Below, in pieces: positions 166-45,423 of a stretch of DNA of 45,423 nt. Position 1 is the first letter of the stretch. Each line of letters opens with the position of its first letter. Both the position numbers and the translations under genes were made by a program. This stretch comes from a virus (lineage: Duplodnaviria > Heunggongvirae > Uroviricota > Caudoviricetes), in the IMG/VR virus record IMGVR_UViG_2563366980_000004; one strand, written 5' to 3'. The notes below the pieces were generated by a model. It made no database searches. It had not been told where the DNA came from and saw nothing but the letters and a program-made list of their open reading frames with translations.

Positions 166-319
166 GTCCAAATTAAAGCTCTTTCACTCTTTCAAAATCC
201 TTTCAGTTAATTGAGGTCGAGCTATATAACTCATTTAAATACATTTGGTTATGTGACTTCTTTAATTGAAAATTCTTTCATGTAACTTTAAATCGATCAG
301 GTTGCTTTCATCAAAAATC

Positions 320-376
320 TGTACATATGCTTGTACATAATGTACAAAGCAGCAGAGGTGTTTTGCGATTTGTACA
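320..376. promoter_or_regulatory. Cluster of four TGTACA motifs overlapping the integrase promoter/leader
   Basis: TGTACA at about 320, 332, 341 and 371; TTGTACAtaaTGTACAA forms a near-palindrome about 40 bp upstream of the int ATG. Confidence 0.35.
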
Positions 377-385
377 AGGTGAGTA

Positions 386-1600: not shown

Positions 1601-1808
1601 TCGAAATGATATTTTGCATATCTAGTACGCAATAAAATATGACAGTCCGCTTTGAGCTGCGGGCATTGCTAGCAGCATTTTCTGTGAAGTAACGGGAGGT
1701 TGTTCAATATTGCCTCTGAAAAGGATAACCATTCAATTCTTCATTGAAAAAACTCATCGAAGATTTTATGGAGGGATGCAATTTATTTTGAGCGAATTTA
1801 ATTCATCA

Positions 1809-1893
1809 CTAATGATCCTACATAGTTATTGCCTTGCTCACTAAAAGGTGAGATTTCATTAGCTCACCAACAATAATTAAATAGGATCATTAG
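1809..1893. repeat. Perfect 12-bp inverted repeat (CTAATGATCCTA / TAGGATCATTAG) flanking about 60 bp that holds a nested CTCAC/GTGAG hairpin
   Basis: Read directly in the AT-rich spacer between the int stop and the 3' end of the minus-strand moron. Confidence 0.35.
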
Positions 1894-1975
1894 CACTTTA
1901 TATCAGGCTATAATTTTAATAAATTACGTTATTTAAAGCCATTTTCTCCATCAAGTAATATCTTCATGCTAATGT

Positions 1976-2971: not shown

Positions 2972-3344
2972 TTTATCTTTTACCTGAAACAAATTTTTAT
3001 TAAAGTAACTTAAAAAATGATTGATTGCAAGATTTACTATTGCTGTTCATTTTAAATTACTATACCCCCCTATGCATACATATAATCCCATAGGGGAGAA
3101 GTTTATTAGTTAGTTAAGTTGAAGGCTATACCTACAATCTAATTCCCCTCCAACCTAACATGCACAAGCGTCAACCTATCGGTAGTGATAATTTTATGAG
3201 GATACGTATAAACAAGATTCTGAGTTGCTCCTATTCATTAAGACAATACATTTTGTAACTTCTGCTTTTGGCTCAGGGTGGGGTGTGAGATTAGGTTTGG
3301 CTCTGTGCCATAGATGTGTCAGTTCACATCTGAGCTAATACACA

Positions 3345-3539
3345 TTACTCAATCACTCCAGCAAACCTATATATCTTGTGTGACGCCCATTTATTTGGGC
3401 ATGATTTAATATCAGGATCTGGAAAATCAGGCCTGTATTTCTGGCCAGTTCTCCGGTTTACGCTGTTCCAGCGAAGAACTGTCGATACTGAAACGCCACA
3501 GAAGTCGGCGACTTGTTTAGTTGTCATTAAGTTGTTCAT
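3345..3539 (-). CDS. AlpA/excisionase-like small DNA-binding protein
   Basis: 64 aa; TKQVADFCGVSVSTVLRW helix-turn-helix followed by an FPxP motif, as in AlpA/Xis-family proteins; sits at the head of the leftward operon facing int. Confidence 0.7.
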   Translation of the reverse strand: MNNLMTTKQVADFCGVSVSTVLRWNSVNRRTGQKYRPDFPDPDIKSCPNKWASHKIYRFAGVIE

Positions 3540-4333
3540 TACTTCACCTCCTGCGGCGGTTCCGGTAGCGGCATCCAGTGGGTTACTTTCGATGCCGGTT
3601 CTTCCACATCGTCAGTAACTGCCCACCATTTGTTTCTCGACCAATCGTAATACCCTTCGAAGGTATCGCACTCAGTCCAGCCGTAAGACTTCCCCCAACA
3701 CCAAACATACTGTTTATCGTTCGGCATTCGCTCACTACAGCTTATCCAACCATCCGGAGTTACCGGAGAGTTGCCCGATAGCGCATTACGCAATCGCTCC
3801 AGCTTCACGTATTCCTGAACCCTGTTTCCGTCGCATGCCTGAAGCCATTGCGCAGCCTTTTGCGCATCAGTGTGAAAGGCACAAGTGCGACCGTCATCAA
3901 ATTGCATTTCGTAGAGGTCAGCAACTTGTTCAAACTGCGTGTGTTGTGACTTGTAAGTTTGGCTTACAGGTTCGGCACCATGAAGCATGGCGGCGCGGCA
4001 GGCGTTCCAGCCATCAACATAATCAAACGTATTGCTATCGTCTGGCTCGATTTCATCTGGCACTATCAGCACCGGCTGGACGGTGACATTGGCAAAGGCA
4101 GCACGCAACCCGGTTTTAATTTCTTCGATTTCATCAGAGCCAAGCGATGAGTCAGAAAGCGCATGGTGGAATGCGTAAGCCATGTCGTCGTTTACTGCCA
4201 CCGGCTCTGCTTCCAGTGATGCCAGCGCGATAAGCGCCAGCTCACGAATTTCACCGCCGTCTATATCGTCAATGTCATCGCGGCCAGAAATGTTAGCCAG
4301 CCATTGCAGTCGCTCTTTGGAAATAGTGATCAT
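3539..4333 (-). CDS. Phage protein with C-terminal DUF551 domain
   Basis: 264 aa; C-terminal W-rich region ending VTHWMPLPEPP is characteristic of DUF551; N-terminal domain is paralogous to ORF 4697..5053. Confidence 0.8.
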   Translation of the reverse strand: MITISKERLQWLANISGRDDIDDIDGGEIRELALIALASLEAEPVAVNDDMAYAFHHALSDSSLGSDEIEEIKTGLRAAFANVTVQPVLIVPDEIEPDDSNTFDYVDGWNACRAAMLHGAEPVSQTYKSQHTQFEQVADLYEMQFDDGRTCAFHTDAQKAAQWLQACDGNRVQEYVKLERLRNALSGNSPVTPDGWISCSERMPNDKQYVWCWGKSYGWTECDTFEGYYDWSRNKWWAVTDDVEEPASKVTHWMPLPEPPQEVK

Positions 4334-4695
4334 GCCGTAGCCCCTTCTTGATATTTTTCAAACCAGAACACAACCGGGTCAGATTTCATTTCAACCAATC
4401 CCATACGAACCAGCGCCTTGCCTTTCCCGGACGCAAGGAATTCACGACGACCATCACTGATAATTCGCCGATAGTCTTCCAGGCTACTGCAATGCTTGTG
4501 CAGATTGCATGGGTGGCATGCCGGAACCATGTTGGATATATCGTCACGCTCCTGGTGAAGCATATTTCCATCAAAACGAATGACCGGTTTTACATGATCT
4601 GCATGCCACTTTTCGCCAAGTTCGCAGCCGCAATAAGCGCAGCGACCACCGAACTTCATGCGCAGTTCTGCACGTTGTTTTTTCGTCAGTGCCAT
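4330..4695 (-). CDS. HNH endonuclease
   Basis: Start taken at MALTKKQ; motifs GGRCAYCGCEL...WHADHVKP...CHPCN are a classic HNH zinc-finger nuclease signature; overlaps flanking genes by a few nt. Confidence 0.8.
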   Translation of the reverse strand: MALTKKQRAELRMKFGGRCAYCGCELGEKWHADHVKPVIRFDGNMLHQERDDISNMVPACHPCNLHKHCSSLEDYRRIISDGRREFLASGKGKALVRMGLVEMKSDPVVFWFEKYQEGATA

Positions 4696-4696
4696 A

Positions 4697-5053
4697 TCAC
4701 TCTCCTTTCCCCTGAAGCATGGCTTCGCGGCAATCGTTCCATCCTTCAGCATAATCACTATACGCAAGAGGCCAACCTCTTATGTATTCACGCGGCAACT
4801 TATCAGGCACTACCAGCGCTGGCGGCGCGGTGTAAAGCTGGTGCGTTCCATCTGGCAGCGAGTGACCTACATACTCACCGACCCCGTCAACACACATGCA
4901 CCCATCCTCAATAATGCATTCCGCTACAGGCTCTGCCTCCAGCGATGCCAGCGCAATTTCATAAGCACGGCGCTCAATATTGTCTCTAACGTCCAGGCTA
5001 CCGATTCGCTCTTTGATTTCTTTAATCAGTTCCTTATCGGTGAAAGTGGTCAT
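4697..5053 (-). CDS. Hypothetical phage protein (YfdT-like; paralog of the N-terminal domain of 3539..4333)
   Basis: 118 aa; shares IALASLEAEPVA and GWNxCRxAML motifs with the 264-aa DUF551 protein. Confidence 0.7.
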   Translation of the reverse strand: MTTFTDKELIKEIKERIGSLDVRDNIERRAYEIALASLEAEPVAECIIEDGCMCVDGVGEYVGHSLPDGTHQLYTAPPALVVPDKLPREYIRGWPLAYSDYAEGWNDCREAMLQGKGE

Positions 5054-5415
5054 TATGCCCCAGCCTCCGGTGCTTTTGGCATTACTGCCCAGTGAGTGAT
5101 ATTGACGTTTTCAAGGTCCCCGACCTGAAATGTCCACTGCCATTCTCCGGTTTCTTTTTGTCCCCAGGTGTACCAGAGAGAACGCCAGCCAATCAGCCAG
5201 CCTTCTCCGTTAATATCAAATAACAGAACACTTTCATTTGCTGGTGGAAGTTCAACTGACACTGGTATTACTTTGTTTTCCAGTGCCGCACATTTAGCTT
5301 CAAGCGCATCGAATTTACGTACCAGATACTCAGCATTTGTTTCATTCACTTTCAGATCTCGCGGTACACATTTCCCGCGAAGAAACCCTTCCATTTCGAA
5401 AACATTCATGCGCAT
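5053..5415 (-). CDS. Hypothetical phage protein with DUF551-like C-terminus (YfdS-like)
   Basis: 120 aa; W-rich C-terminus ending ITHWAVMPKAPE resembles DUF551. Confidence 0.7.
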   Translation of the reverse strand: MRMNVFEMEGFLRGKCVPRDLKVNETNAEYLVRKFDALEAKCAALENKVIPVSVELPPANESVLLFDINGEGWLIGWRSLWYTWGQKETGEWQWTFQVGDLENVNITHWAVMPKAPEAGA

Positions 5416-5942
5416 TTGCGTAACTCCGATAACTCGTTAAAACGTTCCATAAACATCCCATAGGCATGGCCTGGCGACAGTGGAATAACTTTGAACATCT
5501 CTGTTGCCGGGATACCTTCCAGTACAGGCCAGAAAGAGCCATCATCAAGCCCGAGATCGCGGCGTTCGGTTGCCAGCATGATGAGATCGGCATATTTCAC
5601 AGGCGTGCTCATAACCGGGGGTAACCCGTATTTCTCACGGATTACGGCGTCTATTTTTTCTTCCATCCGTTTATAGTCAGGAAGAAGGCGTTTCAGTGGC
5701 GCGGGGATGTCCTGGCAATACGCTTCTGTTGCATCATGCATTAACGCTTCAAAAGCAAATTCCTGCGGCACCAGCTGGCTGCAAAGCACCGCATGCTGGG
5801 CGACGCTGTAGAAGTGTGAAAGATGTCCTGCAAAGCGACAGATATTTGAAAGGGAAACCGCGATATCGTTAATCACGATGTCGTCTTTATTTATCCTGTC
5901 ATAATAAAAATGCTTCCCGGAAAAAGTTTTAATAAATGACAT
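5406..5942 (-). CDS. HD-domain phosphohydrolase (YfdR-like)
   Basis: Start taken at MSFIKT (ORF-track frame arithmetic); HD-type metal-binding residues (H...HD...D) in NICRFAGH...EALMHDATEAY. Confidence 0.8.
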   Translation of the reverse strand: MSFIKTFSGKHFYYDRINKDDIVINDIAVSLSNICRFAGHLSHFYSVAQHAVLCSQLVPQEFAFEALMHDATEAYCQDIPAPLKRLLPDYKRMEEKIDAVIREKYGLPPVMSTPVKYADLIMLATERRDLGLDDGSFWPVLEGIPATEMFKVIPLSPGHAYGMFMERFNELSELRKCA

Positions 5943-6069
5943 TTTGTTCTCCACGTATATGTGCTGCACCACGCTGAATTCTGGTAAAAGGAAGCCCTCA
6001 CCATCCGGTGATTATTGAGTTAATTACGTTTCCATAAATGCCCCCGCAGGGGCATTTGCAGTAATGAAA

Positions 6070-6894
6070 TCAGGCGGTGAAAGTACCAATAAAGGTTTCT
6101 ACTTTGCTGTCCTTGAATTTCTCAACAAGCAGATCACGAAATTCGTTAGCCATTTCCTCCTGCACTGCTTCCAGCTGAATAATGCGCAGAACCAGTACAG
6201 GACGATCGCCAGTGAGAATGCTGAGGCGTAATTTAAACGGACGTTCTTTCAGGCCTTCAAACGGAACGCATTTAAATTCAAATGCCACTGGCATAATGTC
6301 TTTGGTTTTCGCTTCGACAGACTCCATCAGGGAGCGTTTGCCGCTGAAGTCATTGTCTTCAAAATCAGCGGTCTGGTTTGCTTCAATCGTGATTTTACGG
6401 ACTGCCGCAGCTGCTTTTGTTGCCTGAATAGCGTCACCATTAGCATCAAAGCCCACAAGGTAGTCGGCCCAGTCTTCAATCCATTCTGCCAGTGACTTCT
6501 GGGAGTTACGCTCGCCATTAACAGACAACAGAGCAGAGAACGGTGCTGTCTTTTTCAGTTTGAGAGTGGCGGTGTTATCTGCGTGACCTGGTTCATCAAT
6601 AGTACCCAGATTAAGCACACTGACAGCACGCATATTATCAGCATCGATAAAGCAGCGGGTGCCTTCATCTGCAAGATCTTTAGAATAACGGGTAAAGTCA
6701 TCGATGCTGGCAGTGGAAAGCGCACCACGGAAACGGAAGCGATTTAAATTAAATTTTTCCAGATCATGAATGCGGAAATTCTCAGGCAATGCCACAGCAT
6801 CGGCACCAATCTTACTGATAATTTCATTAACACCCTGAGCAGAAATAAGGGCATGGATTTGATTAATTGCGGTTGCGTCTAAGTTCTGAGACAT
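6070..6894 (-). CDS. DUF2303 family phage protein (YfdQ-like)
   Basis: 274 aa, same length and general sequence character as E. coli prophage YfdQ; conserved early-left position. Confidence 0.75.
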
Positions 6895-6959
6895 AATAAG
6901 TCCTCACTATATAAAGATATTCAGTGATGAGATAAATAATCAGTTTATTAAAAACGATA

Positions 6960-7322
6960 TTAACGACCAGCTGCGCGGAGTTTTCCGTCAGGTTCACCGG
7001 CAAGAGTCAGTAATTGTCCCTGGTCTTCCTGCAGAATAGTCAGGCGACCACCGCGATTGACATACATCGGCGTTTCGGTGGTGTCTTCTTCGGAAATTTT
7101 CCCGCGGTTAGTTGGGCGAACATATGAGAGTTTGTGTTTGATTTTCACACGGTTCTCATCAAACGGTTCGATTTCCAGATTGAGTGAGACCTTCCCTTTG
7201 GTTTTCGTGTTCATCACACCGGAAGCGACTTCACTTAGAACTGCGCCGATTTTTGTTTCAAATACGCCGCCGTCCAGCTCCCCGATAAATGCCTGCACAT
7301 CAGTACTGCGTTCACTAGCCAT
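6960..7322 (-). CDS. Hypothetical early-left phage protein (YfdP-like)
   Basis: Start taken at internal MASERSTD (ATG 7322); the upstream in-frame extension to 7508 looks non-coding (C/H/R-rich and overlaps a 10-bp inverted repeat). Confidence 0.6.
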   Translation of the reverse strand: MASERSTDVQAFIGELDGGVFETKIGAVLSEVASGVMNTKTKGKVSLNLEIEPFDENRVKIKHKLSYVRPTNRGKISEEDTTETPMYVNRGGRLTILQEDQGQLLTLAGEPDGKLRAAGR

Positions 7323-7950
7323 TTTGCTGCTCCTCATCATATCGACCCTGCAATGTCGGTTAGTTTCTCCACAAAACAGAGAAGAACACCTGCGGTGGTA
7401 GCCGCCCGGATGGATTGGGTTATGAGCCCGTCGTCCGATGATGTTCTTCTCTGTTTTGTAAAAAGAGCGGTACCAGCCGGAAGCAAGTGTACAAACTGGT
7501 ACCGCCAAAGCAGTGGCTGTTGTGGTGACCGGTGCTGATCTCCGGCTTGCGGTTATTTCAGACTCTCACGGGCATTTAATTGCCCCGCCGAACAGCTCTT
7601 TTCCGCAATAGCTGCAATGTCTTTCGCGCATCAGCCTGCGCATTCACCACAACGCTGAGAGCACTTAGCCAGTTACGGCACCACACTTTGTCGCGGTTCC
7701 ATAAATGCCCTCATCGTTGCACCCTGGTCTCTTCCCAGGCGTCAAACCGAATCGCCACGCTGGTTAGGCGTCTTATCAGCATCATCATTGACTTGCACAT
7801 TCCGGCTACCTGGTTTGTTTGCCCGAGCAAGGAGTGGATTGTCCCCTTTAACGTCCCCAGACCGCTAACGACGCATGTGCCATACGCCGTGTTACAACCA
7901 AATTTTGTTAGTACCTTGTTTGTTTGTCTGGAAAGAAAGATAAAATGAAG

Positions 7951-22943: not shown

Positions 22944-24451
22944 TGGCAATTCTTGATGATGTGATTGGCGTTTTTTCACCAGGATGGAAAGCGGCAAGGC
23001 TGCGTTCCCGTGCGGTGATCCAGGCTTATGAGGCCGTAAAAACGACGCGGACACACAAAGCCCGGCGGGAAAACCGAACTGCCGACCAGTTAAGCCAGTA
23101 CGGGGCCGTGTCGTTACGTGAGCAGGCCCGTTACCTTGATAACAACCACGATCTGGTTATTGGTGTATTTGACAAGCTGGAAGAACGGGTGGTGGGGAAA
23201 AACGGGATTATTGTCGAGCCACATCCGGTATTACGCAATGGGGCCATTGCCCGTGATCTGGCAGCAGAGATACGCACCCGATGGAGTGAATGGTCTGTCA
23301 GTCCGGAAGTCACCGGGCAGTTTACCCGTCCGATGCTGGAACGTCTGATGCTGCGTACCTGGCTGCGCGATGGTGAGGTGTTTGCCCAGATGGTTTCCGG
23401 GCGCATAAACAGCCTGACGCCTTCTGCCGGTGTTCATTTCTGGCTGGAGGCGCTCGAGCCGGACTTTATTCCCATGACCAGTGATGAGAGCAACAGGCTG
23501 AATCAGGGCGTGTTTGTTGATGACTGGGGGCGTCCCGAAAAATATCTGGTGTATAAAAGCCGTCCCGTATCCGGGCGGCAGATGGAAACCAAAGAAGTGG
23601 ATGCAGAGCGAATGCTGCATCTTAAATTTGTTCGCCGTCTGCACCAGATGCGCGGGACGTCTTTGTTGTCCGGTGTGCTGATCCGCCTCAGTGCCCTGAA
23701 AGAGTATGAAGATTCTGAGCTGACTGCAGCAAGGATCGCCGCTGCTCTGGGGATGTACATCCGGAAAGGCGACGGGCAGAGCTATGAACCGGATGGTAAT
23801 GGCAGCAAGGAGAATGAACGCGAGCTTACCATTCAGCCAGGCATTATTTACGACGATCTGAAACCCGGCGAAGAAATCGGAATGGTGAAGTCGGATCGTC
23901 CCAATCCTAACCTTGAAACTTTTCGTAATGGTCAGTTGCGTGCCGTGGCGGCGGGCAGTCGTCTGAGTTTTTCCAGTACGGCACGCAACTATAACGGCAC
24001 TTACAGCGCCCAGCGTCAGGAGCTGGTTGAATCCACTGATGGCTACCTGATCCTGCAGGACTGGTTTATTGGTGCCGTCACCCGCCCGATGTATCGTGCC
24101 TGGCTGAAACAGGCTGTGGCATCCGGTGTTATCAGGCTACCCCGCGATCTTGACCGTTCTTCACTGTATACCGCGGTGTATTCCGGACCGGTGATGCCGT
24201 GGATTGACCCTGTTAAGGAGGCTGAGGCCTGGAAAATTCAGATTCGTGGCGGAGCGGCGACAGAATCAGACTGGGTACGTGCAGGTGGTCGTAATCCGGA
24301 TGATGTCAAACGTCGGCGCAAGGCAGAAATTGATGAAAACCGCAAGCTGGATCTGGTATTTGATACCGATCCGGCCAGTGATAAAGGAGGCAGCAGTGCC
24401 GCAACGAAACGACAGGAGCCGCAGCACACCGACGACCAGTCCGAAGAATAA
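22943..24451 (+). CDS. B: Portal protein (lambda gpB family)
   Basis: 503 aa from MAILDD (TGATG overlap with W); size and position typical of lambda-family portal. Confidence 0.9.
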   Translation: MAILDDVIGVFSPGWKAARLRSRAVIQAYEAVKTTRTHKARRENRTADQLSQYGAVSLREQARYLDNNHDLVIGVFDKLEERVVGKNGIIVEPHPVLRNGAIARDLAAEIRTRWSEWSVSPEVTGQFTRPMLERLMLRTWLRDGEVFAQMVSGRINSLTPSAGVHFWLEALEPDFIPMTSDESNRLNQGVFVDDWGRPEKYLVYKSRPVSGRQMETKEVDAERMLHLKFVRRLHQMRGTSLLSGVLIRLSALKEYEDSELTAARIAAALGMYIRKGDGQSYEPDGNGSKENERELTIQPGIIYDDLKPGEEIGMVKSDRPNPNLETFRNGQLRAVAAGSRLSFSSTARNYNGTYSAQRQELVESTDGYLILQDWFIGAVTRPMYRAWLKQAVASGVIRLPRDLDRSSLYTAVYSGPVMPWIDPVKEAEAWKIQIRGGAATESDWVRAGGRNPDDVKRRRKAEIDENRKLDLVFDTDPASDKGGSSAATKRQEPQHTDDQSEE

Positions 24452-35058: not shown

Positions 35059-38000
35059 ATGGGTAAAGGCAGCAGTAAGGGACATACCCCGCGCGAAGCA
35101 AAGGACAATCTGAAGTCCACGCAGTTGCTGAGTGTGATCGATGCCATCAGCGAAGGGCCGATTGAAGGTCCGGTGGATGGATTAAAAAGCGTGCTGCTGA
35201 ACAGTACGCCGGTGCTGGACAGTGAGGGGAATACCAACATCTCCGGTGTCACGGTGGTGTTCCGGGCAGGTGAGCAGGAACAGACACCGCCGGAGGGATT
35301 TGAATCCTCCGGATCCGAGACGGTGCTGGGTACGGAAGTGAAATACGACACGCCGATCACCCGGACCATCACGTCTGCAAACATCGACCGTCTGCGCTTT
35401 ACCTTCGGTGTGCAGGCACTGGTGGAAACCACCTCAAAGGGGGACCGGAATCCGTCGGAAGTCCGCCTGCTGGTTCAGATACAGCGTAATGGTGGCTGGG
35501 TGACGGAAAAAGACATCACCATTAAGGGCAAAACCACCTCGCAGTATCTGGCCTCGGTGGTGGTGGATAACCTGCCGCCGCGCCCGTTTAATATCCGGAT
35601 GCGCAGAATGACGCCGGACAGCACCACAGACCAGCTGCAGAACAAAACGCTCTGGTCGTCATACACCGAAATCATCGATGTGAAACAGTGCTACCCGAAC
35701 ACGGCACTGGTCGGCGTGCAGGTGGATTCGGAGCAGTTCGGCAGCCAGCAGGTGAGTCGTAATTATCATCTTCGCGGGCGCATTCTGCAGGTGCCGTCGA
35801 ACTATAACCCGCAGACGCGACAATACAGCGGTATCTGGGACGGAACGTTTAAGCCAGCATACAGCAACAACATGGCCTGGTGTCTGTGGGATATGCTGAC
35901 CCATCCGCGCTACGGCATGGGGAAGCGTCTCGGTGCGGCGGATGTGGACAAATGGGCGCTGTATGTCATCGGCCAGAATTGCGACCAGTCGGTGCCGGAT
36001 GGCTTTGGTGGCACGGAGCCGCGCATCACCTGTAATGCCTGGCTGACCACACAGCGCAAGGCGTGGGATGTGCTCAGTGATTTCTGCTCGGCGATGCGCT
36101 GTATGCCGGTATGGAACGGGCAGACGCTGACGTTCGTGCAGGACCGACCATCAGATAAGGTGTGGACCTATAACCGCAGTAATGTGGTGATGCCGGATGA
36201 TGGCGCGCCGTTCCGCTACAGCTTCAGCGCCCTGAAGGACCGCCATAATGCCGTTGAGGTGAACTGGATTGACCCGAACAACGGCTGGGAGACGGCGACA
36301 GAGCTTGTTGAAGATACGCAGGCCATTGCCCGTTACGGTCGTAACGTCACGAAGATGGATGCCTTTGGCTGTACCAGCCGGGGGCAGGCGCACCGCGCCG
36401 GGCTGTGGCTGATTAAAACGGAACTGCTGGAAACGCAGACCGTGGACTTCAGCGTGGGTGCGGAAGGGCTTCGCCATGTACCGGGGGATGTCATTGAAAT
36501 CTGTGATGATGACTATGCGGGTATCAGCATCGGCGGGCGCGTGCTGGCGGTGAACAGCCAGACCCGGACGCTGACGCTCGACCGTGAAATCACGCTGCCA
36601 TCCTCCGGTACCACGCTGATAAGTCTGGTTGACGGAAGTGGCAATCCGGTCAGCGTGGAGGTTCAGTCCGTCACCGACGGCGTGAAGGTAAAAGTGAGCC
36701 GTGTTCCTGACGGTGTTGCTGAATACAGCGTATGGGGGCTGAAGCTGCCGACGCTGCGCCAGCGCCTGTTCCGCTGCGTGAGTATCCGTGAGAACGACGA
36801 CGGCACGTATGCCATCACCGCCGTGCAGCATGTGCCGGAAAAAGAGGCCATCGTGGATAACGGGGCGCACTTTGACGGCGACCAGAGCGGCACGGTGAAT
36901 GGTGTCACGCCGCCTGCGGTGCAGCACCTGACTGCCGAAGTCACCTCAGACAGCGGGGAGTATCAGGTGCTGGCGCGCTGGGATACGCCGAAGGTGGTGA
37001 AGGGGGTGAGCTTTATGCTTCGCCTGACCGTGGCAGCGGATGACGGCAGTGAGCGGCTGGTCAGCACGGCCAGGACGACGGAAACCACATACCGCTTCAG
37101 GCAACTGGCGCTGGGGCGTTACACGCTGACGGTCAGGGCGGTAAATGCGTGGGGACAGCAGGGCGATCCGGCATCGGTATCGTTCCGGATTGCCGCACCG
37201 GCAGCGCCGTCGCGGATTGAGCTGACGCCGGGCTATTTTCAGATAACTGCCACGCCGCATCTTGCGGTTTATGATCCGACGGTACAGTTTGAGTTCTGGT
37301 TCTCGGAAAAGCGGATTACCGATATCAGGCAGGTTGAGACCACAGCCCGCTATCTTGGTACGGCGCTGTACTGGATAGCTGCCAGTATCAATATCAAACC
37401 GGGCCATGATTATTACTTTTATATCCGCAGTGTGAACACCGTTGGCAAATCGGCATTCGTGGAGGCTGTTGGTCAGCCGAGCGATGATGCGGAAGGTTAC
37501 CTGGATTTTTTCAAAGGCCAGATAACCGAATCCCATCTCGGCAAGGAGCTGCTGGAAAAAGTCGAGCTGACGGAGGATAACGCCAGCAAACTGGAGGAGT
37601 TTTCGAAAGAGTGGAAGGACGCCAACGATAAATGGAATGCCATGTGGGGCGTCAAAATTGAGCAGACCGAAGACGGCAGGCATTATGTCGCGGGGCTTGG
37701 CCTTAGTATGGAGGATACGGAGGAAGGCAAACTGAGCCAGTTCCTGGTTGCCGCTAACCGTATCGCGTTTATTGACCCGGCAAACGGGAATGAAACGCCG
37801 ATGTTTGTGGCGCAGGGCAACCAGATATTCATGAACGAAGTGTTCCTGAAGTATCTGACGGCTCCCACCATTACCAGTGGCGGCAATCCTCCGGTATTTT
37901 CCCTGACACCGGACGGGCGGCTGACGGCGAAAAATGCCGATATCAGCGGTAACGTGAATGCGAACTCCGGGACGCTCAATAATGTCACGATTAACGAGAA

Positions 38001-38454
38001 CTGTCGGGTTCTGGGAAAACTGTCCGCGAACCAGATTGAAGGCGATCTCGTTAAAACAGTGGGCAAAGCTTTCCCCCGGGACTCCCGTGCACCGGAGCGG
38101 TGGCCATCAGGGACTATTACCGTCAGGGTTTATGACGATCAGTCGTTTGACCGGCAAATTGTTATTCCAGCGGTGGCTTTCTGCGGTGCCAGACATGAGC
38201 GGGAGAATAGCGATACTTATTCGTCATGCCGCCTGATAGTGAAGAAAAACGGGGCTGAAATTTATAACCGAACGGCTCTGGATAATACTCTGATTTACAC
38301 GGGTGTTATTGATATGCCTGCAGGCAGTGGTGTAATGACACTGGAGTTTTCTGTATCAGCATGGTGGGTAAATGGTTGGTATCCCACAGCAAGTATCAGC
38401 GATTTGCTGGTTGTTGTGATGAAGAAAGCCACTGCAGGCATCAGTATCAGCTGA
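35059..38454 (+). CDS. J: Host specificity / central tail fibre protein J
   Basis: 1131 aa, collinear with lambda gpJ throughout; GGAG RBS. Confidence 0.9.
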
Positions 38455-38473
38455 ATTTTATAACCCCAATACG

Positions 38474-38497
38474 GGCGTCAGAAATGACGCCTTTTTT
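38474..38497 (+). terminator. Intrinsic terminator after J
   Basis: GGCGTCA-GAAA-TGACGCC followed by TTTTTT. Confidence 0.55.
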
Positions 38498-38521
38498 ATT
38501 GCAGAAAAGCGAGAGGTAATT

Positions 38522-39121
38522 ATGCGTAAATTATGTGCTGTTATTCTGTCCGCAGTAGTCTGGCTGGTTGCCGCTGGTACGCCAGCGAGCGCAGCAGAGC
38601 ATCAGTCCACACTAAGCGCCGGGTATCTTCAGACCCATACTTATATGCCAGGCAGTGATGACCTGAAGGGCATTAACGTGAAATACCGTTATGAATTTAC
38701 GGACACGCTGGGGCTGGTGACGTCATTCAGTTATGCAGGATACAAGAATCGTCAGCTGACCCGTTACAGCGATACCCGCTGGCATAAAGATTCCGTGCGT
38801 AACCGCTGGTTCAGCGTGATGGCGGGGCCGTCTGTGCGCGTGAATGAATGGTTCAGCGCGTATGCGATGGCGGGTATGGCTTACAGCCGTGTTTCGACTT
38901 TTTCCGGGGATTACCTCCGCGTAACTGACAACAAGGGGAAAACGCACGATGTGCTGACCGGAAGTGATGACGGTCGCCACAGCAACACGTCTCTGGCGTG
39001 GGGAGCTGGCGTGCAGTTTAACCCGACCGAATCCGTGGCCATTGATATTGCTTATGAAGGCTCCGGCAGTGGTGACTGGCGCACTGACGGTTTCATCGTG
39101 GGTGTCGGTTATAAGTTCTGA
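38522..39121 (+). CDS. lom: Lom outer-membrane protein (Ail/Lom/PagC/OmpX family)
   Basis: Signal peptide, beta-barrel-like alternating pattern, C-terminal GYKF; lambda lom position after J. Confidence 0.85.
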   Translation: MRKLCAVILSAVVWLVAAGTPASAAEHQSTLSAGYLQTHTYMPGSDDLKGINVKYRYEFTDTLGLVTSFSYAGYKNRQLTRYSDTRWHKDSVRNRWFSVMAGPSVRVNEWFSAYAMAGMAYSRVSTFSGDYLRVTDNKGKTHDVLTGSDDGRHSNTSLAWGAGVQFNPTESVAIDIAYEGSGSGDWRTDGFIVGVGYKF

Positions 39122-39148
39122 TTAGCCAGGTAACACAGTGTTATGACA

Positions 39149-39175
39149 GCCCGCCGGTTCAGGCGGGCTTTTTTG
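39149..39175 (+). terminator. Intrinsic terminator after lom
   Basis: GCCCGCC-GGTTCA-GGCGGGC followed by TTTTTT. Confidence 0.6.
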
Positions 39176-39185
39176 TGGAGTGGAT

Positions 39186-41561
39186 ATGGCAGCAGTAAAA
39201 ATCTCAGGTGTGCTGAAAGATGGTGCGGGAAAACCAATACAGAACTGCACTATTCAACTGAAGGCAAAGCGTAACAGCACCACGGTACTGGTGAACACGG
39301 TGGCCTCTGAAAATCCGGATGAAGCCGGGCGTTACAGCATGGATGTTGAGTATGGCCAGTACAGCGTCATCCTGCTGGTTGAAGGTTTTCCGCCTTCACA
39401 TGCCGGGACCATTACCGTCTATGAAGGCTCCAGACCAGGTACGCTGAATGATTTTCTCGGTGCCATGACGGAAGATGATGTCATGCCGGAGGCATTGCGT
39501 CGTTTTGAGGAAATGGTGGAAGAAGCGGCACGCAACGCTGAAGCCGCCTCTCAGAGCGCAGCGGCGGCAAAGAAATCCGAAACTGCAGCGGCATCATCGA
39601 AGAACGCGGCGAAAACCTCAGAAACGAATGCAGCTAATAGTGCACAGGCGGCAGCGACCTCACAGACTGCATCAGCAAACTCCGCGACAGCAGCCAAAAA
39701 ATCAGAAACCAACGCGAAAAATAGCGAGACAGCCGCAAAGACGAGCGAAACCAACGCAAAGTCCAGCCAGACGGCAGCGAAGACCAGCGAAACGAATGCT
39801 AAAGCCAGTGAAACTGCGGCAAAAAACAGCCAGGTTGCAGCAGCCCAAAGCGAGAGCGCGGCAGCCGGTTCTGCGACTTCAGCAGCTGGATCAGCAACTG
39901 CTGCGGCTAACAGCCAGAAAGCTGCGAAGACGAGTGAAACTAACGCAAAGTCCAGCCAGACGGCAGCGAAGACCAGCGAAACGAATGCCAAAGCCAGTGA
40001 AACTGCGGCGAAAAGCAGTCAGGATGCAGCGGCCCAAAGCGAGAGTGCCGCAGCCAGTTCTGCAAGTGAGGCGGCGGCTTCTGCTACTGCATCAGCCAAC
40101 AGTCAAAAAGCTGCAAAAACCAGTGAAACCAACGCAAAGGCGAGCGAGACTACGGCGGCCAACTCGGCGAAAGCATCCGCTGCAAGCCAGACCGCTGCAA
40201 AAGCAAGTGAAGACGCAGCCAGAGAGTATGCAAGCCAGGCAGCAGATCCGTATAAATATGTCTTACAGCCGCTGCCTGATGTGTGGATACCGTTTAACGA
40301 TTCACTGGATATGATTACGGGCTTTTCGCCATCATATAAAAAGATTGTTATTGGTGACGACGAAATAACGATGCCTGGCGACAAGATTGTTAAGTTTAAA
40401 CGTGCATCGAAAGCAACCTATATTAACAAATCTGGTGTGCTGACAGAGGCTGCCATTGATGAGCCTCGATTTGAACGTGATGGCCTGCTTATTGAGGGGA
40501 AAAGAACGAACTACATGCTCAATTCGGAAAACCCTGCCAGTTGGGGGCGATCGTCAAATATGGATGTTCCCGAAACCGGGACGGATAGTTTTGGTTTTAC
40601 CTATGGAAAGTTTGTCTGTAACGATTCTCTGATTGGGCAAACCTCAGCCATTAATATGGCATCAATTGCTGCAACAAAGTCAGTTGATGTCTCAGGCGAT
40701 AATAAATACGTGACAACCTCATGTCGTTTTAAAACAGAACTGCAGGTAAGGTTGCGTATCCGATTTGATAAATATGACGGTAGCGCAACAACTTTTCTTG
40801 GTGATGCGTATATTGATACACAAACGCTTGAAATTAATATGACAGGCGGCGCTGCCTCAAGGATTACAGCGAGAGTCAGAAAGGACGAAGCTACCGGATG
40901 GATTTTTGCAGAGGCAACAATTCAGGCAATTGATGGGGAGTTAAAAATAGGTTCTCAGATACAGTATTCTCCTAAGCAGGGCGGGGCAACCGTATCTGGT
41001 GACTATATTTATCTGGCCACCCCACAAGTAGAAAATGGGCCTTGTGTATCATCTTTTATTATATCAGGAACGACGGCGGCGACCCGCGCAAGCGATATAG
41101 TTACAGTTCCCATTAAGAATAATCTTTATAATCTTCCTTTTACGGTTCTTTGTGAGGTACATAAGAACTGGTATAAAACGCCAAATGCAGCGCCGCGTGT
41201 TTTTGACACCGGCGGTCATCAAACCGGAGCGGCTATTATTCTTGGCTTCGGTTCTTCAGCAGATTACGACGGATTTCCTTATTGCGATATTGGAGGAGCT
41301 AACAGACGGGTAAACGAAAACGCATTGCTTGAAAAAATGGTTATGGGGATGCGTGTAAAGTCAGATCAGTCTACGTGCTCAGTAAGTAACGGGCGTATAT
41401 CCAGCGAAACAAAAACCACATGGTCCTGTATTCAGAACACCGCAATTATCCGTATTGGAGGCCAGACTACAGCCGGGTTACGTCATTTATTTGGTCATGT
41501 CAGGAATTTCAGAATATGGCACAAGGCATTGACTGATGCTCAGGTGGGGGAGTCAATCTAA
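39186..41561 (+). CDS. stf: Side tail fibre protein (Stf-like N-terminus, Ala/Ser/Thr-rich repeat shaft, distinct C-terminal domain)
   Basis: N-terminus MAAVKISGVLKDGAGKPIQNCTIQLKAKRNSTTVLVNTVASENPDEAGRYSMDVEYGQYSVIL matches lambda Stf; central KTSETNAKxSxTAAK repeats. Confidence 0.85.
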   Translation: MAAVKISGVLKDGAGKPIQNCTIQLKAKRNSTTVLVNTVASENPDEAGRYSMDVEYGQYSVILLVEGFPPSHAGTITVYEGSRPGTLNDFLGAMTEDDVMPEALRRFEEMVEEAARNAEAASQSAAAAKKSETAAASSKNAAKTSETNAANSAQAAATSQTASANSATAAKKSETNAKNSETAAKTSETNAKSSQTAAKTSETNAKASETAAKNSQVAAAQSESAAAGSATSAAGSATAAANSQKAAKTSETNAKSSQTAAKTSETNAKASETAAKSSQDAAAQSESAAASSASEAAASATASANSQKAAKTSETNAKASETTAANSAKASAASQTAAKASEDAAREYASQAADPYKYVLQPLPDVWIPFNDSLDMITGFSPSYKKIVIGDDEITMPGDKIVKFKRASKATYINKSGVLTEAAIDEPRFERDGLLIEGKRTNYMLNSENPASWGRSSNMDVPETGTDSFGFTYGKFVCNDSLIGQTSAINMASIAATKSVDVSGDNKYVTTSCRFKTELQVRLRIRFDKYDGSATTFLGDAYIDTQTLEINMTGGAASRITARVRKDEATGWIFAEATIQAIDGELKIGSQIQYSPKQGGATVSGDYIYLATPQVENGPCVSSFIISGTTAATRASDIVTVPIKNNLYNLPFTVLCEVHKNWYKTPNAAPRVFDTGGHQTGAAIILGFGSSADYDGFPYCDIGGANRRVNENALLEKMVMGMRVKSDQSTCSVSNGRISSETKTTWSCIQNTAIIRIGGQTTAGLRHLFGHVRNFRIWHKALTDAQVGESI
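39745..40010. repeat. Intragenic direct repeats in stf (a near-identical ~68-bp unit occurring twice about 190 bp apart, plus degenerate copies)
   Basis: ACGCAAAGTCCAGCCAGACGGCAGCGAAGACCAGCGAAACGAATGC(T/C)AAAGCCAGTGAAACTGCGGC occurs at about 39753 and 39942. Confidence 0.5.
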
Positions 41562-41842
41562 TGAAAGATTTAACACTCAAATTTGCCGACAGGGCCGACT
41601 TTTCGGCCTTTATGGAGAGTATTGGCTATTATGATGACGAGTCGATGCAGGATGATATTCTTATTGACGTGATAGGTAACGTGTACAAAGAAAACGGAGA
41701 ACTGAATGAAGATGGCGAACCGGTATGTGTTAAGGACGACGGATATTTTGTAAACGTGCGCATCATTAATGATGTGAAAACACCATCAATATTCGATGAA
41801 TACGTGGTTGCTGTTGAGCATCAACTTCGTGGCTGGATGTGA
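41561..41842 (+). CDS. Hypothetical small acidic protein (possible fibre-associated chaperone)
   Basis: 93 aa; TAATG overlap with stf stop; no family recognised. Confidence 0.55.
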   Translation: MKDLTLKFADRADFSAFMESIGYYDDESMQDDILIDVIGNVYKENGELNEDGEPVCVKDDGYFVNVRIINDVKTPSIFDEYVVAVEHQLRGWM

Positions 41843-41851
41843 GGAAGAAAA

Positions 41852-42892
41852 ATGGCTACATCGACAGTAATTCCTGATGACATCAAAACGCTAAAATCCG
41901 ACGTTAGCAAATTAAAAAACGATCAAGGAAGCTACGCAACAAAATCATATGTAGACAGCAAAGATGAAACCGTTGGTGACTGGTCTGCTTCATGGTATCA
42001 GCAGGTATTGCCAACTAGCGGAGCTATATTTGGGAGAAAACTCCGCTCAACTCACAGGACGGCAGGTGTTGAGGATGCGTATTGCGAACTATACCTCAAA
42101 AAATGGATAGACAGTCCAGGTAACGCAATGGCGCGCCTTAACCTGAACGATAACGGGACAAACATTTGCTGGGACTTTACCAACCTTTATGGCGGTACGA
42201 TGATTTTTCCCGGTGACAGCGGATACCTCAAAATGGGTAACTGCCTTATGTCATACAGCAAGCGTGGAAGTAACGCGCTTATTAAATTTGATTACACCGA
42301 CACATTACAGATCAAATATGCCAATCATGGGTCAACCATGACATTAAACACACAGGGAACCGCTCATTCTGGCGCTACTACTAGTTTGTGGGGTAACTCT
42401 ACCCGTCCGGTTGTATATGAAGTTGGTGCTGATGGTGGCGCGTATATGTTCTATGCGCAGAAAAATACCGATAACACCTATATGTTAAGCGTTAATGGTG
42501 CATGTCATGCCACCGCATTTAACCAGCATTCCGACCGGGATCTGAAAGACAACATTCAGGTGATCGATAATGCAACCGACCGCATCCGTAAAATGAACGG
42601 CTATACATACACGCTTAAAGAAAACGGTATGCCCTATGCTGGTGTCATTGCACAGGAAGCACTGGAAGCAATCCCAGAAGTTGTAGGTTCCGCAATGAAA
42701 TATCAGGACGGTGCAGGCGGATCGGAAGGTGAAGAAGGTGAACGTTATTACACAGTAGATTATTCTGGTGTTACTGGCTTGCTTGTTCAGGTAGCCAGAG
42801 AGTCAGACGACAGAATAACAGCACTGGAAGAAGAAAACGCAGAATTAAGACAAAGATTATCTGCAATTGAGGCGGCGCTTGCGTCTAAATAA
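41852..42892 (+). CDS. Second tail fibre/spike protein with C-terminal intramolecular chaperone (peptidase S74-like) domain
   Basis: C-terminal region (HSDRDLKDNIQ...MNGYTYTLKENG...GVIAQEALEAIPEVV...VDYSGVTGLLVQVARE...LEEENAELRQRL) resembles the self-cleaving chaperone domain of endosialidase-type fibres. Confidence 0.75.
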   Translation: MATSTVIPDDIKTLKSDVSKLKNDQGSYATKSYVDSKDETVGDWSASWYQQVLPTSGAIFGRKLRSTHRTAGVEDAYCELYLKKWIDSPGNAMARLNLNDNGTNICWDFTNLYGGTMIFPGDSGYLKMGNCLMSYSKRGSNALIKFDYTDTLQIKYANHGSTMTLNTQGTAHSGATTSLWGNSTRPVVYEVGADGGAYMFYAQKNTDNTYMLSVNGACHATAFNQHSDRDLKDNIQVIDNATDRIRKMNGYTYTLKENGMPYAGVIAQEALEAIPEVVGSAMKYQDGAGGSEGEEGERYYTVDYSGVTGLLVQVARESDDRITALEEENAELRQRLSAIEAALASK

Positions 42893-42919
42893 TATTAAGG
42901 GGCCGAGCGCCCCGTTTTA

Positions 42920-43228
42920 TTGGGTAGGATGAAAATGGATATAACACCTTTCCTTCATGCGCTTTGTGCTGCGGCTGCGCAGCTATTGATTGGTCTTTTT
43001 ACCGGGAACTGGGCTTACGGGGCGATAGCCGGTTGTACGTTCTTCATTGCGCGCGAACATACCCAGGCAGAATATCGCTGGATTGAAATGTTCGGGCATG
43101 GCAAGCGTATGAATATGCCGTGGTGGGGCGGTTTTGATCCTCGTGCATGGGATGTGGCAAGCCTGATGGATTTTTCTGTGCCGGTGGTGGCGTGTCTGCT
43201 GGTCTGGCTGTTGGTTAATCGTGGGTGA
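42920..43228 (+). CDS. Hypothetical small membrane protein
   Basis: 102 aa with two to three hydrophobic segments; possible alternative start at MKMDITPF; preceded by a hairpin terminator-like element. Confidence 0.5.
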   Translation: MGRMKMDITPFLHALCAAAAQLLIGLFTGNWAYGAIAGCTFFIAREHTQAEYRWIEMFGHGKRMNMPWWGGFDPRAWDVASLMDFSVPVVACLLVWLLVNRG

Positions 43229-43238
43229 AAAAAGGTGA

Positions 43239-43367
43239 GCTGTATATGCAACGGAGGAAGAAACCTCGTTGCTGGAAGCCTGGAAGAAGTATCGGGTGTT
43301 GCTGAATCGCGTTGATACATCAGTAGCACCGGATACTGAGTGGCCGGAAGAACCAGACACAATGTAA
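43239..43367 (+). pseudogene. tfa: 3' remnant of a tail fibre assembly (tfa) gene
   Basis: Start-less frame encoding ...[38 protein letters not shown]-stop, resembling the conserved Tfa C-terminus; an in-frame stop lies immediately upstream and there is no start codon. Confidence 0.5.
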
Positions 43368-43531
43368 GTGAAAAAGAAAAAACGCAGACACGACGTATGC
43401 AGGACGTGCTGCGGTTGGCTGGTGAACTTTCGATAGTGCGAGTATTGAATGATTTCCAGCCGTTACTGATTTTACGCATTTCACGCGCAAGAGAAATTGA
43501 ACTTTATCCCTCTGTCACCCCATGACGGGGA

Positions 43532-44290
43532 TTAACATTCTGGATTTTTTATTTCTAAATCAGATAAAGCATTAATTCTTATTTTTTCTAAGGCTTTATC
43601 CATGGCCCCCTTGATTCTGTATCCATAATCATCCGGTTCTTCATATTCCTGTGGGGACGGATTTGTACCAATATTCTCAATCAATTCATTTAAAATAACT
43701 GTTACTTCTTTATTAAGAAGAACTGCTTTAGTTAACATCATCTCTGTTAATGCTGTGAAGGCTAGGCTAAGTTTCTGTTGTAGCTCTTTATTTTTTAATT
43801 TTAGATCTTCATCGTTTAGTGCTTTATCACGGTCTTCGTGAGCCTGTTGTACTTCATCCCAAAACTGCTTTTCTTGTTCTTGATTAAAATATCCTTGATA
43901 ACTATTGGCTACATATGTTGGCATCATGTGAATCTCAATAATTTCAAATTCATTATCAGCCCATTTTTTTATACTAAGTAACTGTGTGTAAATGTACTCA
44001 TACATATCGTACTTTTTTTGCCAGATTTGTTGAGAAATCCACAACTCAGAAGTAATCTTTTTTTCTATATCTTTGATAGTTGTTGTATTTAATGCTAACT
44101 GCTTTCTGAGTATTTCATAGTTAGCGTTGGTAGCAGAAATTTTTGCTTTTTCAGTTATAAAAGAAACAATAAAGTTCACTATGAGAGCTACAATAATAAT
44201 AGCGAAGCTCAACCCCAAAATCTCTGTGGTTGAGAAATTGGATGACTGTAATGCTTTGATAAGTTCAAAAAACTGTTTTTCTGTGAGCAT
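43532..44290 (-). CDS. Hypothetical membrane-anchored coiled-coil protein (AT-rich cargo gene)
   Basis: 252 aa; ATG with AAGG RBS; single N-terminal TM (ILGLSFAIIIVALIVNFIVSFI) followed by an acidic coiled-coil region; AT-rich, antisense to the tail genes. Confidence 0.65.
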   Translation of the reverse strand: MLTEKQFFELIKALQSSNFSTTEILGLSFAIIIVALIVNFIVSFITEKAKISATNANYEILRKQLALNTTTIKDIEKKITSELWISQQIWQKKYDMYEYIYTQLLSIKKWADNEFEIIEIHMMPTYVANSYQGYFNQEQEKQFWDEVQQAHEDRDKALNDEDLKLKNKELQQKLSLAFTALTEMMLTKAVLLNKEVTVILNELIENIGTNPSPQEYEEPDDYGYRIKGAMDKALEKIRINALSDLEIKNPEC

Positions 44291-44388
44291 GGTGCCTTAC
44301 CAAAAATTAAGACTGTTATCTATATAAAAATGTTACCCAAGAGGGATTGTAATGAAATAACAAACCGGCACATTGGCCGGTTTGAAGT

Positions 44389-45423
44389 TCAAGGAGGTGA
44401 GATTGTAGAGGCGTTACCTTGTTCTATCACACCAGACCTAATCTTGTAACTACCAAGGATGTTGACCGTTTTATTATTTTTCATCGCGTCAAAAATTAAG
44501 CCTATTTCATCAGGGTCATTGATAAAACTGGTATCAACATAGATCGGGAATGAATCATCACCTGTTGGCTCATGGCAGCTTAACGTTAGCTTATCGGCTG
44601 AGCGTTTTATACTATCAATGACAACTTCCAATGTTTGCTGCTCTGACTTAGCCTTTTCAATTGGGTTCTTGATGATTTCTTGAACCTGACCTTGCGAAAG
44701 TTCAATATTGCTGGCCCCGCGGATCGTCACTTTGTCTGCATCAGATGCACCTTTAAGAACTCCAGTGTATGCCTTAGCGGTGTGCTCTTGGATACCTTCG
44801 GCGCGCTCTATCGTATCAATACCTTCATGTGCTTTTATTGCAGACAGCATACCATCGCGTAGAATTGTCATCCGCTCGGATTCTGCTCGCTGTTTTGCTT
44901 CTTCCTGTTGTAACTCAATAGTTTTGGTTTCGACTTGTGTCTGATGATCTAAGTAGGACGTACCGACCCATGCGCCGCCTAAAACTAAGACAGCAAACAG
45001 GAAACACATTGTTTTCTGTCTTGGGCTCATACCTTGTGTTACCTTCTCAAATGCGTTACCAAAGGAATCAATAAGTTCTTTAACTGAGGTGATAATTTCT
45101 GTACAGCCAGGTTTGATAGTAAAAACCAACTCTGCAGCTTCTCTATCCTCAGCAGTGAGCTTCTGTAAGTTAGAGGTTTTGTACTTGATTAGAGTAAAAA
45201 CCTTGTACATCTCAGTTTGAAATTCACAAATACCCTGTGCCAAACCTGCAGGCAGAGTACCATTATACTTATCTTCATCACCAAAAAATTTGAAATCAAT
45301 ACTTTCTAAGAAGTTTAACTTCAAATTTTCAATGTGGATTTCTTCGCCTGAAATAACTCGGTCGAAAATATTTCCTATATCATCAATATCATTGATTTCA
45401 TAGGTCTGAATTGCATCTTCCAT
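44389..45423 (-). CDS. Hypothetical protein with central TM segment and coiled-coil (AT-rich cargo gene; N-terminus may lie beyond the window)
   Basis: ORF runs to the window edge (344 aa seen); acidic N-terminal region, TM segment (TMCFLFAVLVLGGAWVGTSYL), Q/E-rich coiled-coil, C-terminal globular region; same strand and composition as 43532..44290. Confidence 0.65.
   Translation of the reverse strand: MEDAIQTYEINDIDDIGNIFDRVISGEEIHIENLKLNFLESIDFKFFGDEDKYNGTLPAGLAQGICEFQTEMYKVFTLIKYKTSNLQKLTAEDREAAELVFTIKPGCTEIITSVKELIDSFGNAFEKVTQGMSPRQKTMCFLFAVLVLGGAWVGTSYLDHQTQVETKTIELQQEEAKQRAESERMTILRDGMLSAIKAHEGIDTIERAEGIQEHTAKAYTGVLKGASDADKVTIRGASNIELSQGQVQEIIKNPIEKAKSEQQTLEVVIDSIKRSADKLTLSCHEPTGDDSFPIYVDTSFINDPDEIGLIFDAMKNNKTVNILGSYKIRSGVIEQGNASTISPP

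Follow-up and report, generated by a model that had tools for sequence, protein, structure and literature searches.

The window analysed here, a stretch of 45,423 nucleotides recorded in IMG/VR as IMGVR_UViG_2563366980_000004, ends on its right in the late region of a lambdoid Escherichia coli prophage, where the side tail fibre gene stf is followed by three genes, whose products we call p93, p346 and p97 after their length in amino acids (aa), and by a fragment of tfa. We propose, with a probability of about 0.7, that stf and the genes for p93 and p346 constitute a three-gene composite lateral-fibre cassette, in the version carried by lambdoid prophages, and that an unrelated membrane gene (p97) and a dead fragment (tfa) lie behind it. 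Sequence comparisons make it most likely that p346 is the distal segment of a two-part side fibre and not an independent second fibre.

According to this proposal, Stf would be the proximal fibre, anchored in the tail tip by its lambda-type N-terminus and continuing in a shaft rich in repeats and a conserved C-terminal module of 430 aa. The small p93, co-translated with Stf, would act on or at this module and either help it to fold or form part of a joint. A short trimeric distal receptor-binding protein, p346, would dock with its 24 N-terminal residues on the end of Stf or on p93, recognize the host surface (O-antigen, lipopolysaccharide or a similar glycan being the likeliest target) with its variable middle, and carry an S74 domain that would drive the folding of the trimer and then cut itself off before Ser227. 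The assembled fibre would thus consist of two segments, possibly with two binding domains. We place p346 in this docked position because of the models published for phage IrisVonRoten (PMC11990801) and because of the co-occurrence of the genes. The gene for p97 would be a separate, strongly conserved inner-membrane gene beside the receptor-binding genes, and the tfa fragment would have been left by an older stf-tfa cassette, displaced long ago by a cassette of the present type. The elements of the locus are the following:

39180-41561, + strand: stf, proximal side tail fibre (Pfam, PHROG and PDB-chain matches)
40266-41558, + strand: conserved C-terminal module of Stf, ~430 aa (NCBIfam and tblastn matches)
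41561-41842, + strand: p93, acidic protein of 93 aa (phrog_1361)
41852-42892, + strand: p346, putative distal receptor-binding fibre protein (phrog_4563, Peptidase_S74)
41852-41923, + strand: N-terminal anchor of p346, residues 1-24, MATSTVIPDDIKTLKSDVSKLKND
41984-42361, + strand: hypervariable central region of p346, residues 45-170
42530-42889, + strand: S74 intramolecular chaperone domain of p346, residues 227-346, with C-terminal coiled coil
42899-42920, + strand: terminator-like GC hairpin and T-run, between p346 and p97
42935-43228 (from 42920 if the start is TTG), + strand: p97, small inner-membrane protein (phrog_1443)
~43239-43367, + strand: 3' remnant of tfa, a pseudogene with the conserved Tfa C-terminal domain (Caudo_TAP)

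A first-pass annotation, made from the DNA letters without database searches, had described four elements behind stf: an acidic protein of 93 aa, a fibre-like protein of 346 aa, a membrane protein of 102 aa and a start-less tfa fragment. All four are present where it had placed them and each has independent homology support, PHROG families matching all four proteins (Stf, p93, p346 and p97) at full length. The segment 41400-43600 is 100% identical in E. coli LS4, where RefSeq labels p93 and p97 as hypothetical, p346 as tail fiber domain-containing and tfa as a pseudogene missing its N-terminus.

The probable proximal fibre and p93

Translated from the GTG at 39180, Stf has 793 aa; from the ATG at 39186, which is probably the true start, it has 791. 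Its residues 5-134 match Pfam phage_tail_N (PF08400) with 224 bits, its residues 5-97 match the solved lambda-type 'Tail fiber protein' chain 9e7m (E 1e-49), and the whole protein matches phrog_1419 over 793/793 positions. The tail-attachment domain that characterizes the N-terminus of a lambda-type Stf is therefore present, but the intact cognate tfa expected directly downstream is missing: p93, p346 and p97 follow, and then only the tfa remnant. The shaft, rich in Ala, Ser and Thr, is made of KTSETNAK-type units encoded by imperfect tandem repeats of 189 bp and 42 bp between 39705 and 40150. This repeat region shows a very strong skew of A over T, and its copy number varies among related phages, which explains the differing lengths of their Stf proteins.

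The distal half of Stf carries the evidence for a cassette. Residues 437-637 match the NCBIfam 'head spike fiber' domain NF048003, and the C-terminal module ends in ...RHLFGHVRNFRIWHKALTD, a tail which we take to be typical of LamG/galectin-like lectin domains. A tblastn search found this module in 217 phage records, distributed among lambdoid, Queuovirinae (9g-like), Drexlerviridae (T1-like), Dhillonvirus, T5-like and rV5-like phages, and its extreme C-terminus is invariant in an alignment of eight phages. Residues 133-793 share 52% identity with gp22 of IrisVonRoten over 744 aligned columns.

The ATG of the p93 gene overlaps the stop codon of stf (ATGA). The protein has an isoelectric point of 4.1, with 21 Asp and Glu against 8 Lys and Arg, and matches phrog_1361 at full length (E 2e-44), so that the small acidic protein noticed on first reading was correctly recognized. 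Its homologues occur in 181 phage genomes belonging to the same groups as those carrying the Stf C-terminal module, always directly after that fibre gene; identity amounts to 39% with IrisVonRoten gp23 and to 41-97% with the homologues in six other phages. An exhaustive HMMER search returned no fusion of p93 to a fibre protein, the two long matches being weak and repetitive. In the fibre, p93 probably serves either assembly or the joint between the segments.

The probable distal protein p346

The third protein of the cassette matches phrog_4563 'tail fiber protein' over positions 1-346/346, and most of its 201 homologues are named 'tail fiber domain-containing protein'. Residues 227-278 match positions 1-57/58 of the Pfam profile Peptidase_S74 (PF13884) with 52.5 bits (E 6e-14), the gathering cutoff of the family being 22 bits. 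The stretch S227-D-R-D-L-K232 is nearly invariant, Ser227 and Lys232 being kept in at least 90% of 31 homologues. In S74-type chaperones, the serine of the cleavage site is reportedly paired with a lysine five residues downstream, as a Ser-Lys dyad. In addition, residues 215-279 align with the tip/chaperone region of gp37 of the Salmonella phage S16 in structure 6f45 (E 0.002). From what is established for the S74 family, p346 is predicted to cleave itself before Ser227, leaving a mature protein of 226 aa. The S74-type chaperone domain that had been suspected at the C-terminus is thus confirmed at the level of sequence, and so is supported the view of p346 as a fibre protein of the receptor-binding type.

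Conservation is very unevenly distributed along p346. In distant short homologues, identity to the window protein is ~70% for residues 1-24, 17% for residues 45-170 and 69% for the S74 domain. Receptor-binding proteins are usually built in this way, the anchor and the folding domain being constant and the binding domain between them variable, and residues 45-170, which are beta-rich in the AlphaFold2 model with block-mean predicted local distance difference test (pLDDT) values of ~56-85, are presumed to be the receptor-binding domain. Downstream of the gene, the hairpin at 42899-42920 reads GGGGCCGAGCGCCCC then GTTTTATT; it is absent where p97 directly follows p93 or another distal gene (phage 21 and IdasGreatGrand), and in ESCO3 the distal gene is followed by another terminator.

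The cassette in other phages and its exchange

At most of the p93 loci inspected, the next gene encodes a protein that starts with the motif of p346, MxTxTxIPxDIxxLK. The N-termini of the distal proteins read as follows:

Window (ESCO3 identical): MATSTVIPDDIKTLK
IdasGreatGrand: MATSTVIPGDITTLK
tunus: MATVTVIPSDITKLK
phC17: MVTKTVIPADITKLK
IrisVonRoten gp24: MVTKTVIPTDITKLK

The distal protein of JenP1 opens with the same motif. The distal proteins listed above have an S74-type C-terminus and middle regions unrelated to each other. Five other phages have the three genes in this order, overlapping or closely spaced: IrisVonRoten (T5-like), tunus (Drexlerviridae), phC17 (T5-like), ESCO3 (Nonagvirus) and IdasGreatGrand, whose distal protein is a different one, of 234 aa, with the same N-terminus. 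In IrisVonRoten, the trio consists of gp22 (796 aa), gp23 (92 aa) and gp24 (574 aa), and each of its defining parts has a counterpart in the window, namely the proximal C-terminal module, a gene for ~92 aa abutting or overlapping the stop codon, and a motif-bearing distal protein with an S74 domain. Since these phage groups differ in their tail tips and share the Stf C-terminal module and p93, the partner of the anchor is most simply this module, p93 or both. The lateral fibres of siphoviruses may be built from a single protein, from two or from more, and their target is probably O-antigen (PMC8594841). For IrisVonRoten itself, the AlphaFold-Multimer models in Fig. 12 of PMC11990801 and the text that goes with them show gp24 attached to the long proximal fibre, which is described there as having a galectin-like C-terminal domain, maybe an extra binding domain.

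Comparison at the DNA level shows where the exchangeable parts begin and end. Positions 5001-7563 of vB_EcoS_ESCO3, a virulent Nonagvirus (9g-like), are 95.5% identical in nucleotides to positions 40266-42828 of the window. This shared piece of 2.56 kb begins where the Stf C-terminal module begins, takes in p93 and stops shortly before the end of p346; the two phages have nothing else in common. As far as can be judged from the sequences, this indicates that the Stf C-terminal module, p93 and p346 move as one unit and that the exchange between virulent and temperate phages was recent. With IdasGreatGrand, a block at 41454-41895 is conserved (the last 36 codons of stf, p93 and the first 15 codons of the distal gene) between diverged flanks; judged from this pattern, it would look like a constant joint between exchangeable parts. 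DNA homology ends at 41923 with tunus and at 41895 with IdasGreatGrand.

Among temperate phages, the plaque-forming 2G7b, Tritos, HannyBb and PhiR63_1 have the same arrangement as the window, with 96.6-97.1% identity. Phage 21 and PhiR40_1 have stf, a p93 homologue and p97, the latter placed after p93 across a short ribosome-binding spacer, and no distal gene. The idea that the distal gene is missing from these two because of a different C-terminal domain of Stf was rejected, PhiR40_1 having the same loops as the window protein.

The membrane protein p97

RefSeq and phage annotations start p97 at the ATG at 42935, with AGGA 7 nucleotides upstream, which gives 97 aa; starting at the TTG at 42920 would give 102. 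The small membrane protein of the first-pass annotation is therefore present, but 97 aa is the likelier length. It has strongly hydrophobic segments at residues ~5-24 and 74-97 and a weaker one at ~25-39, and it matches phrog_1443 (E 4e-58). Between the second and the third hydrophobic segments lies a loop that is invariant or nearly so across genera, AREHTQAEYRWI..FG.G.R.NMPWWGGFD. No relative of p97 was found in Pfam, NCBIfam or PADLOC, or by profile search in PDB, and the family, of 561 clusters at 90% identity, is unannotated. A promoter scan upstream of the gene found no sigma-70-like site, leaving an independent moron promoter unsupported.

The distribution of p97 differs from that of the cassette. 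The protein is 87-98% identical across the lambdoid phages compared, whose fibre genes differ widely, and it is absent from the virulent carriers of the module that were examined (ESCO3, tunus, IrisVonRoten and phC17). The phages of the collection that carry it are almost all temperate-type phages of E. coli, and it is present in 1904/5426 complete E. coli genomes, usually in two copies. In other prophages, homologues with 56-63% identity directly follow receptor-binding genes of unrelated kinds. The preceding gene encodes an S74 fibre in a P2-like prophage of Leclercia and a pectate-lyase spike in Citrobacter; the Salmonella homologue stands between two spike genes, and that of Comamonas comes after the gene for a giant J protein and an open reading frame of 72 aa. 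An Aeromonas homologue of 57% identity is surrounded by ordinary chromosomal genes, with no phage genes nearby. Because virulent carriers lack it and because lambdoid fibres vary while it stays conserved, p97 is, on this comparative evidence, not part of the fibre module, and its inclusion in the fibre locus by the earlier reading does not hold. By analogy, we think that p97 probably has a conversion or exclusion-type function, since its position recalls that of such genes adjoining receptor-binding genes.

The tfa remnant

The last element matches positions 95-130/131 of the Pfam profile Caudo_TAP (PF02413) with 60.5 bits (E 2e-16). Lambda Tfa was used as the full-length reference, the E. coli matches examined being themselves remnants; the fragment aligns with residues 156-191 of lambda Tfa at 86% identity, and at the DNA level positions 43247-43345 share 92% identity with lambda. 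An in-frame TGA stands directly upstream, no ATG, GTG or TTG precedes the LLEAW codons, and 42 codons are left, so that there is neither a complete reading frame nor the fibre-binding N-terminal domain of a functional Tfa. RefSeq likewise records a tfa pseudogene missing its N-terminus. The fragment is a dead remnant of a displaced, older stf-tfa cassette.

This alignment upholds the identification of a start-less C-terminal piece of tfa, and with it the idea that a recombination event displaced the usual stf-tfa pair and left its tail behind. Read as an event specific to this locus, however, the claim is not supported. Phage 21 and E. coli 22726, neither of which has p346, carry the block 42926-43304 (p97 and the first two thirds of the fragment) at 94% identity, and in 2G7b 39 codons of the fragment are present. 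Since phages that lack p346 share the junction of p97 with the remnant, this junction is old and inherited, and p346 did not create it on its arrival. Other E. coli prophages, too, carry tfa pieces without a start codon at their right ends (in O157:H7, for instance, beside dinI-like genes), and the downstream sequence of some of these pieces is the same as here. The C-terminal domain is said to be the conserved part of Tfa and is for this reason likely, we infer, to be a recurrent crossover point.

Insertions into tfa remnants seem to have taken place more than once at this position, since 2G7b (6823-7846) and strain S1-NGR-02-A (2479-3632) each have a minus-strand gene for a SAM-dependent methyltransferase between two tfa fragments.

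Alternative explanations

Several observations weigh against a composite cassette and were set against the evidence above. p93 is also present where no distal gene follows (phage 21, PhiR40_1 and rV5-like phages), and it is therefore not merely an adaptor for the distal protein; in the literature, we found no paper that mentions p93 or shows it in virions. With 346 aa against 574, p346 is 228 aa shorter than IrisVonRoten gp24, and BLASTP at E <= 0.01 detects no similarity between the two; given this gap in length and sequence, the T-shape with a gp12-like first binding domain (gp12-like plus T5-like) need not apply to the window. The AlphaFold2 monomer model of p346 is weak, with a mean pLDDT of 65 and values <50 for residues 225-283 and 287-306, and a Foldseek comparison of this model with PDB gave nothing significant, the sole match to a phage protein being T4 gp34 (E 0.45), so that it is the sequence on which the S74 fold rests.

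The first-pass annotation had taken p346 for a second fibre. On this model, p346 would be independent and attach to the tail by itself, and its recent acquisition by recombination in this prophage would have truncated tfa and given the phage a dual or switched host range. p346 is indeed a complete protein of the receptor-binding type with a chaperone domain of its own, the terminator-like hairpin behind it is what one would expect of a cassette that arrived at the end of an operon, and a recent arrival would agree with the tfa remnant and with the 95.5% identity to a virulent Nonagvirus, which shows that cassettes were exchanged recently. However, p346 has no recognisable domain of its own for attachment to the tail, and its anchor always travels with the Stf C-terminal module and p93, across phages of four unrelated tail types. 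The piece exchanged with ESCO3 includes that module and p93 and not p346 alone, and the p97/tfa junction exists in phage 21 and others that lack p346, so that the truncation of tfa did not come about through the arrival of p346. We consider an independent fibre unlikely, an altered or dual specificity being plausible all the same. That the whole region is decaying prophage junk with non-functional reading frames is hardly credible: a pseudogene fragment is present and insertion sequence elements interrupt the same region in some genomes, but all four reading frames are intact and close to the genes of plaque-forming phages, with compact junctions of stop codon, ribosome-binding site and start codon preserved.

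Within the composite cassette, the function of p93 leaves more room for discussion. It could possibly be a stoichiometric structural joint kept in the virion, like T4 gp35/gp36, and not a chaperone; the end of Stf, p93 and the distal anchor do form one unit between variable flanks, the predicted domain of p93 is compact and confident (pLDDT 88), and gp23 of IrisVonRoten is annotated as 'tail fiber protein'. Against such a joint, p93 is kept in phages without a following distal gene, the IrisVonRoten model in PMC11990801 joins gp24 to the proximal fibre with no small protein named in the part concerned, and proteomic evidence was not found in the literature. We regard a role in the folding or assembly of the Stf C-terminal module as somewhat more likely. 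A share of p97 in the fibre system, for example as a membrane-anchored factor for assembly or export, seems very unlikely to us. Phage fibres assemble in the cytoplasm, and p97 is missing from the virulent phages examined that have the identical fibre module; the genes beside which it stands are structurally unrelated (S74 fibre, pectate-lyase spikes, J protein), and the Aeromonas homologue is away from phage genes altogether. Its place directly after receptor-binding genes, here and in prophages of Leclercia, Citrobacter, Salmonella and Comamonas, and its tight coupling to the preceding gene in phage 21 and IdasGreatGrand are what could be said for it.

Flanking regions

The features on either side of the locus are the following:

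35059-38454, + strand: J
38522-39121, + strand: lom
43383-43502, + strand: lambda b-region-like stretch, backbone right of the tfa remnant (DNA identity)
43532-45423, - strand: two low-GC genes

On the left, LS4 (316-6162, compared with window 35059-41561) has no lom between J and stf, where the window has one; either the window comes from another source strain, or the tail region is mosaic among near-identical prophages. On the right, the stretch 43383-43502 corresponds, with 83% identity, to lambda 24163-24283, which lies between ea47 and ea31 in the b region; the right-hand backbone is therefore ordinary lambdoid sequence. Parts of this stretch are also found in IdasGreatGrand, in PhiR40_1 and at the ends of O157 prophages. 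The ea47 region, which in lambda separates tfa from this stretch, is absent from the window.

Further to the right, the two minus-strand genes at 43532-44290 (252 aa) and 44389-45423 (344 aa) have 31-40% GC against ~45-55% nearby. The protein of 344 aa matches phrog_6191, of unknown function, and neither protein has a significant match in Pfam, NCBIfam or PADLOC. In LS4, the pair has the tfa remnant on one side and the DinI-like/prfC end of the prophage on the other. It could be foreign cargo, such as a moron or a defence pair.

Frequency and significance

The window had been described as departing from the usual stf-tfa pair, but its arrangement turned out to be a common standard type of its own: at a query coverage of at least 80%, the four parts occur together in ~448/5426 complete E. 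coli genomes, and they are found in cultured phages as well. p346 by itself is present in 512 of these 5426 genomes. Because the arrangement is frequent, occurs in cultured phages and has been modelled for a T5-like relative, the locus adds little as a discovery. Our literature searches found no paper on this cassette in lambdoid phages and none that assigns a function to the 93-aa or the 97-aa protein.

The interest of the locus lies in what side fibres do, since they help to decide which strains of E. coli, shielded by O-antigen, a phage can reach. Viewed as a composite fibre, it offers clean points of exchange at the start of the Stf C-terminal module, at the joint of p93 and anchor, and at the S74 domain, which could guide the retargeting of lambda-based particles. 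The cassette also illustrates how temperate and virulent phages trade the same 2.5-kb module almost unchanged. The questions of most interest are the role of p93 and why a conserved small membrane protein follows the receptor-binding genes in many prophages. A tentative generalization would be that the p97 family is a new general prophage factor for superinfection exclusion or envelope modification and, separately, that p93 is a universal joint or assembly factor of two-part lateral fibres in four phage groups.

Comparison with known systems

The closest known system is that of IrisVonRoten (Bas32), whose genes for gp22, gp23 and gp24 have the same order and spacing as those of the window, the same N-terminal motif in the distal protein and the same S74-type end. 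The two differ in the N-terminus of the proximal fibre, which is lambda-type here and T5-type in IrisVonRoten, and in what follows the cassette, p97 and a tfa remnant being found behind it only in the window. With lambda Stf-Tfa, the window shares the N-terminal attachment domain of Stf, and a 3' remnant of tfa survives; unlike lambda, it has no intact tfa, and in place of the distal half of the fibre stand the Stf C-terminal module, p93 and a distal protein that includes a chaperone domain.

More distant systems are instructive by analogy. In the T5-like phages DT57C and DT571/2, a second fibre protein (LtfB) is attached via the first (LtfA) and both have recognition domains; these branched, L-shaped fibres bind O-antigen and get the phage past the O-antigen shield (PMC4728585, PMC10713586). 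They represent an experimentally supported case of a second fibre protein hanging on the first, and their descriptions have no small gene in between, unlike the window. The long tail fibre of T4 (gp34/35/36/37), which bears no sequence relationship to the proteins studied here, is an end-to-end fibre of several proteins with small joint proteins. The S74 domains of the K1F/endoNF endosialidase, of T5 pb1 and of S16 gp37 have, as in p346, a Ser-x4-Lys motif and a C-terminal position after a beta-rich tip; compared with these carriers, p346 is very short, with a predicted mature part of 226 aa. The locus is one more example of a composite lateral fibre of a type that is already known, common and catalogued.

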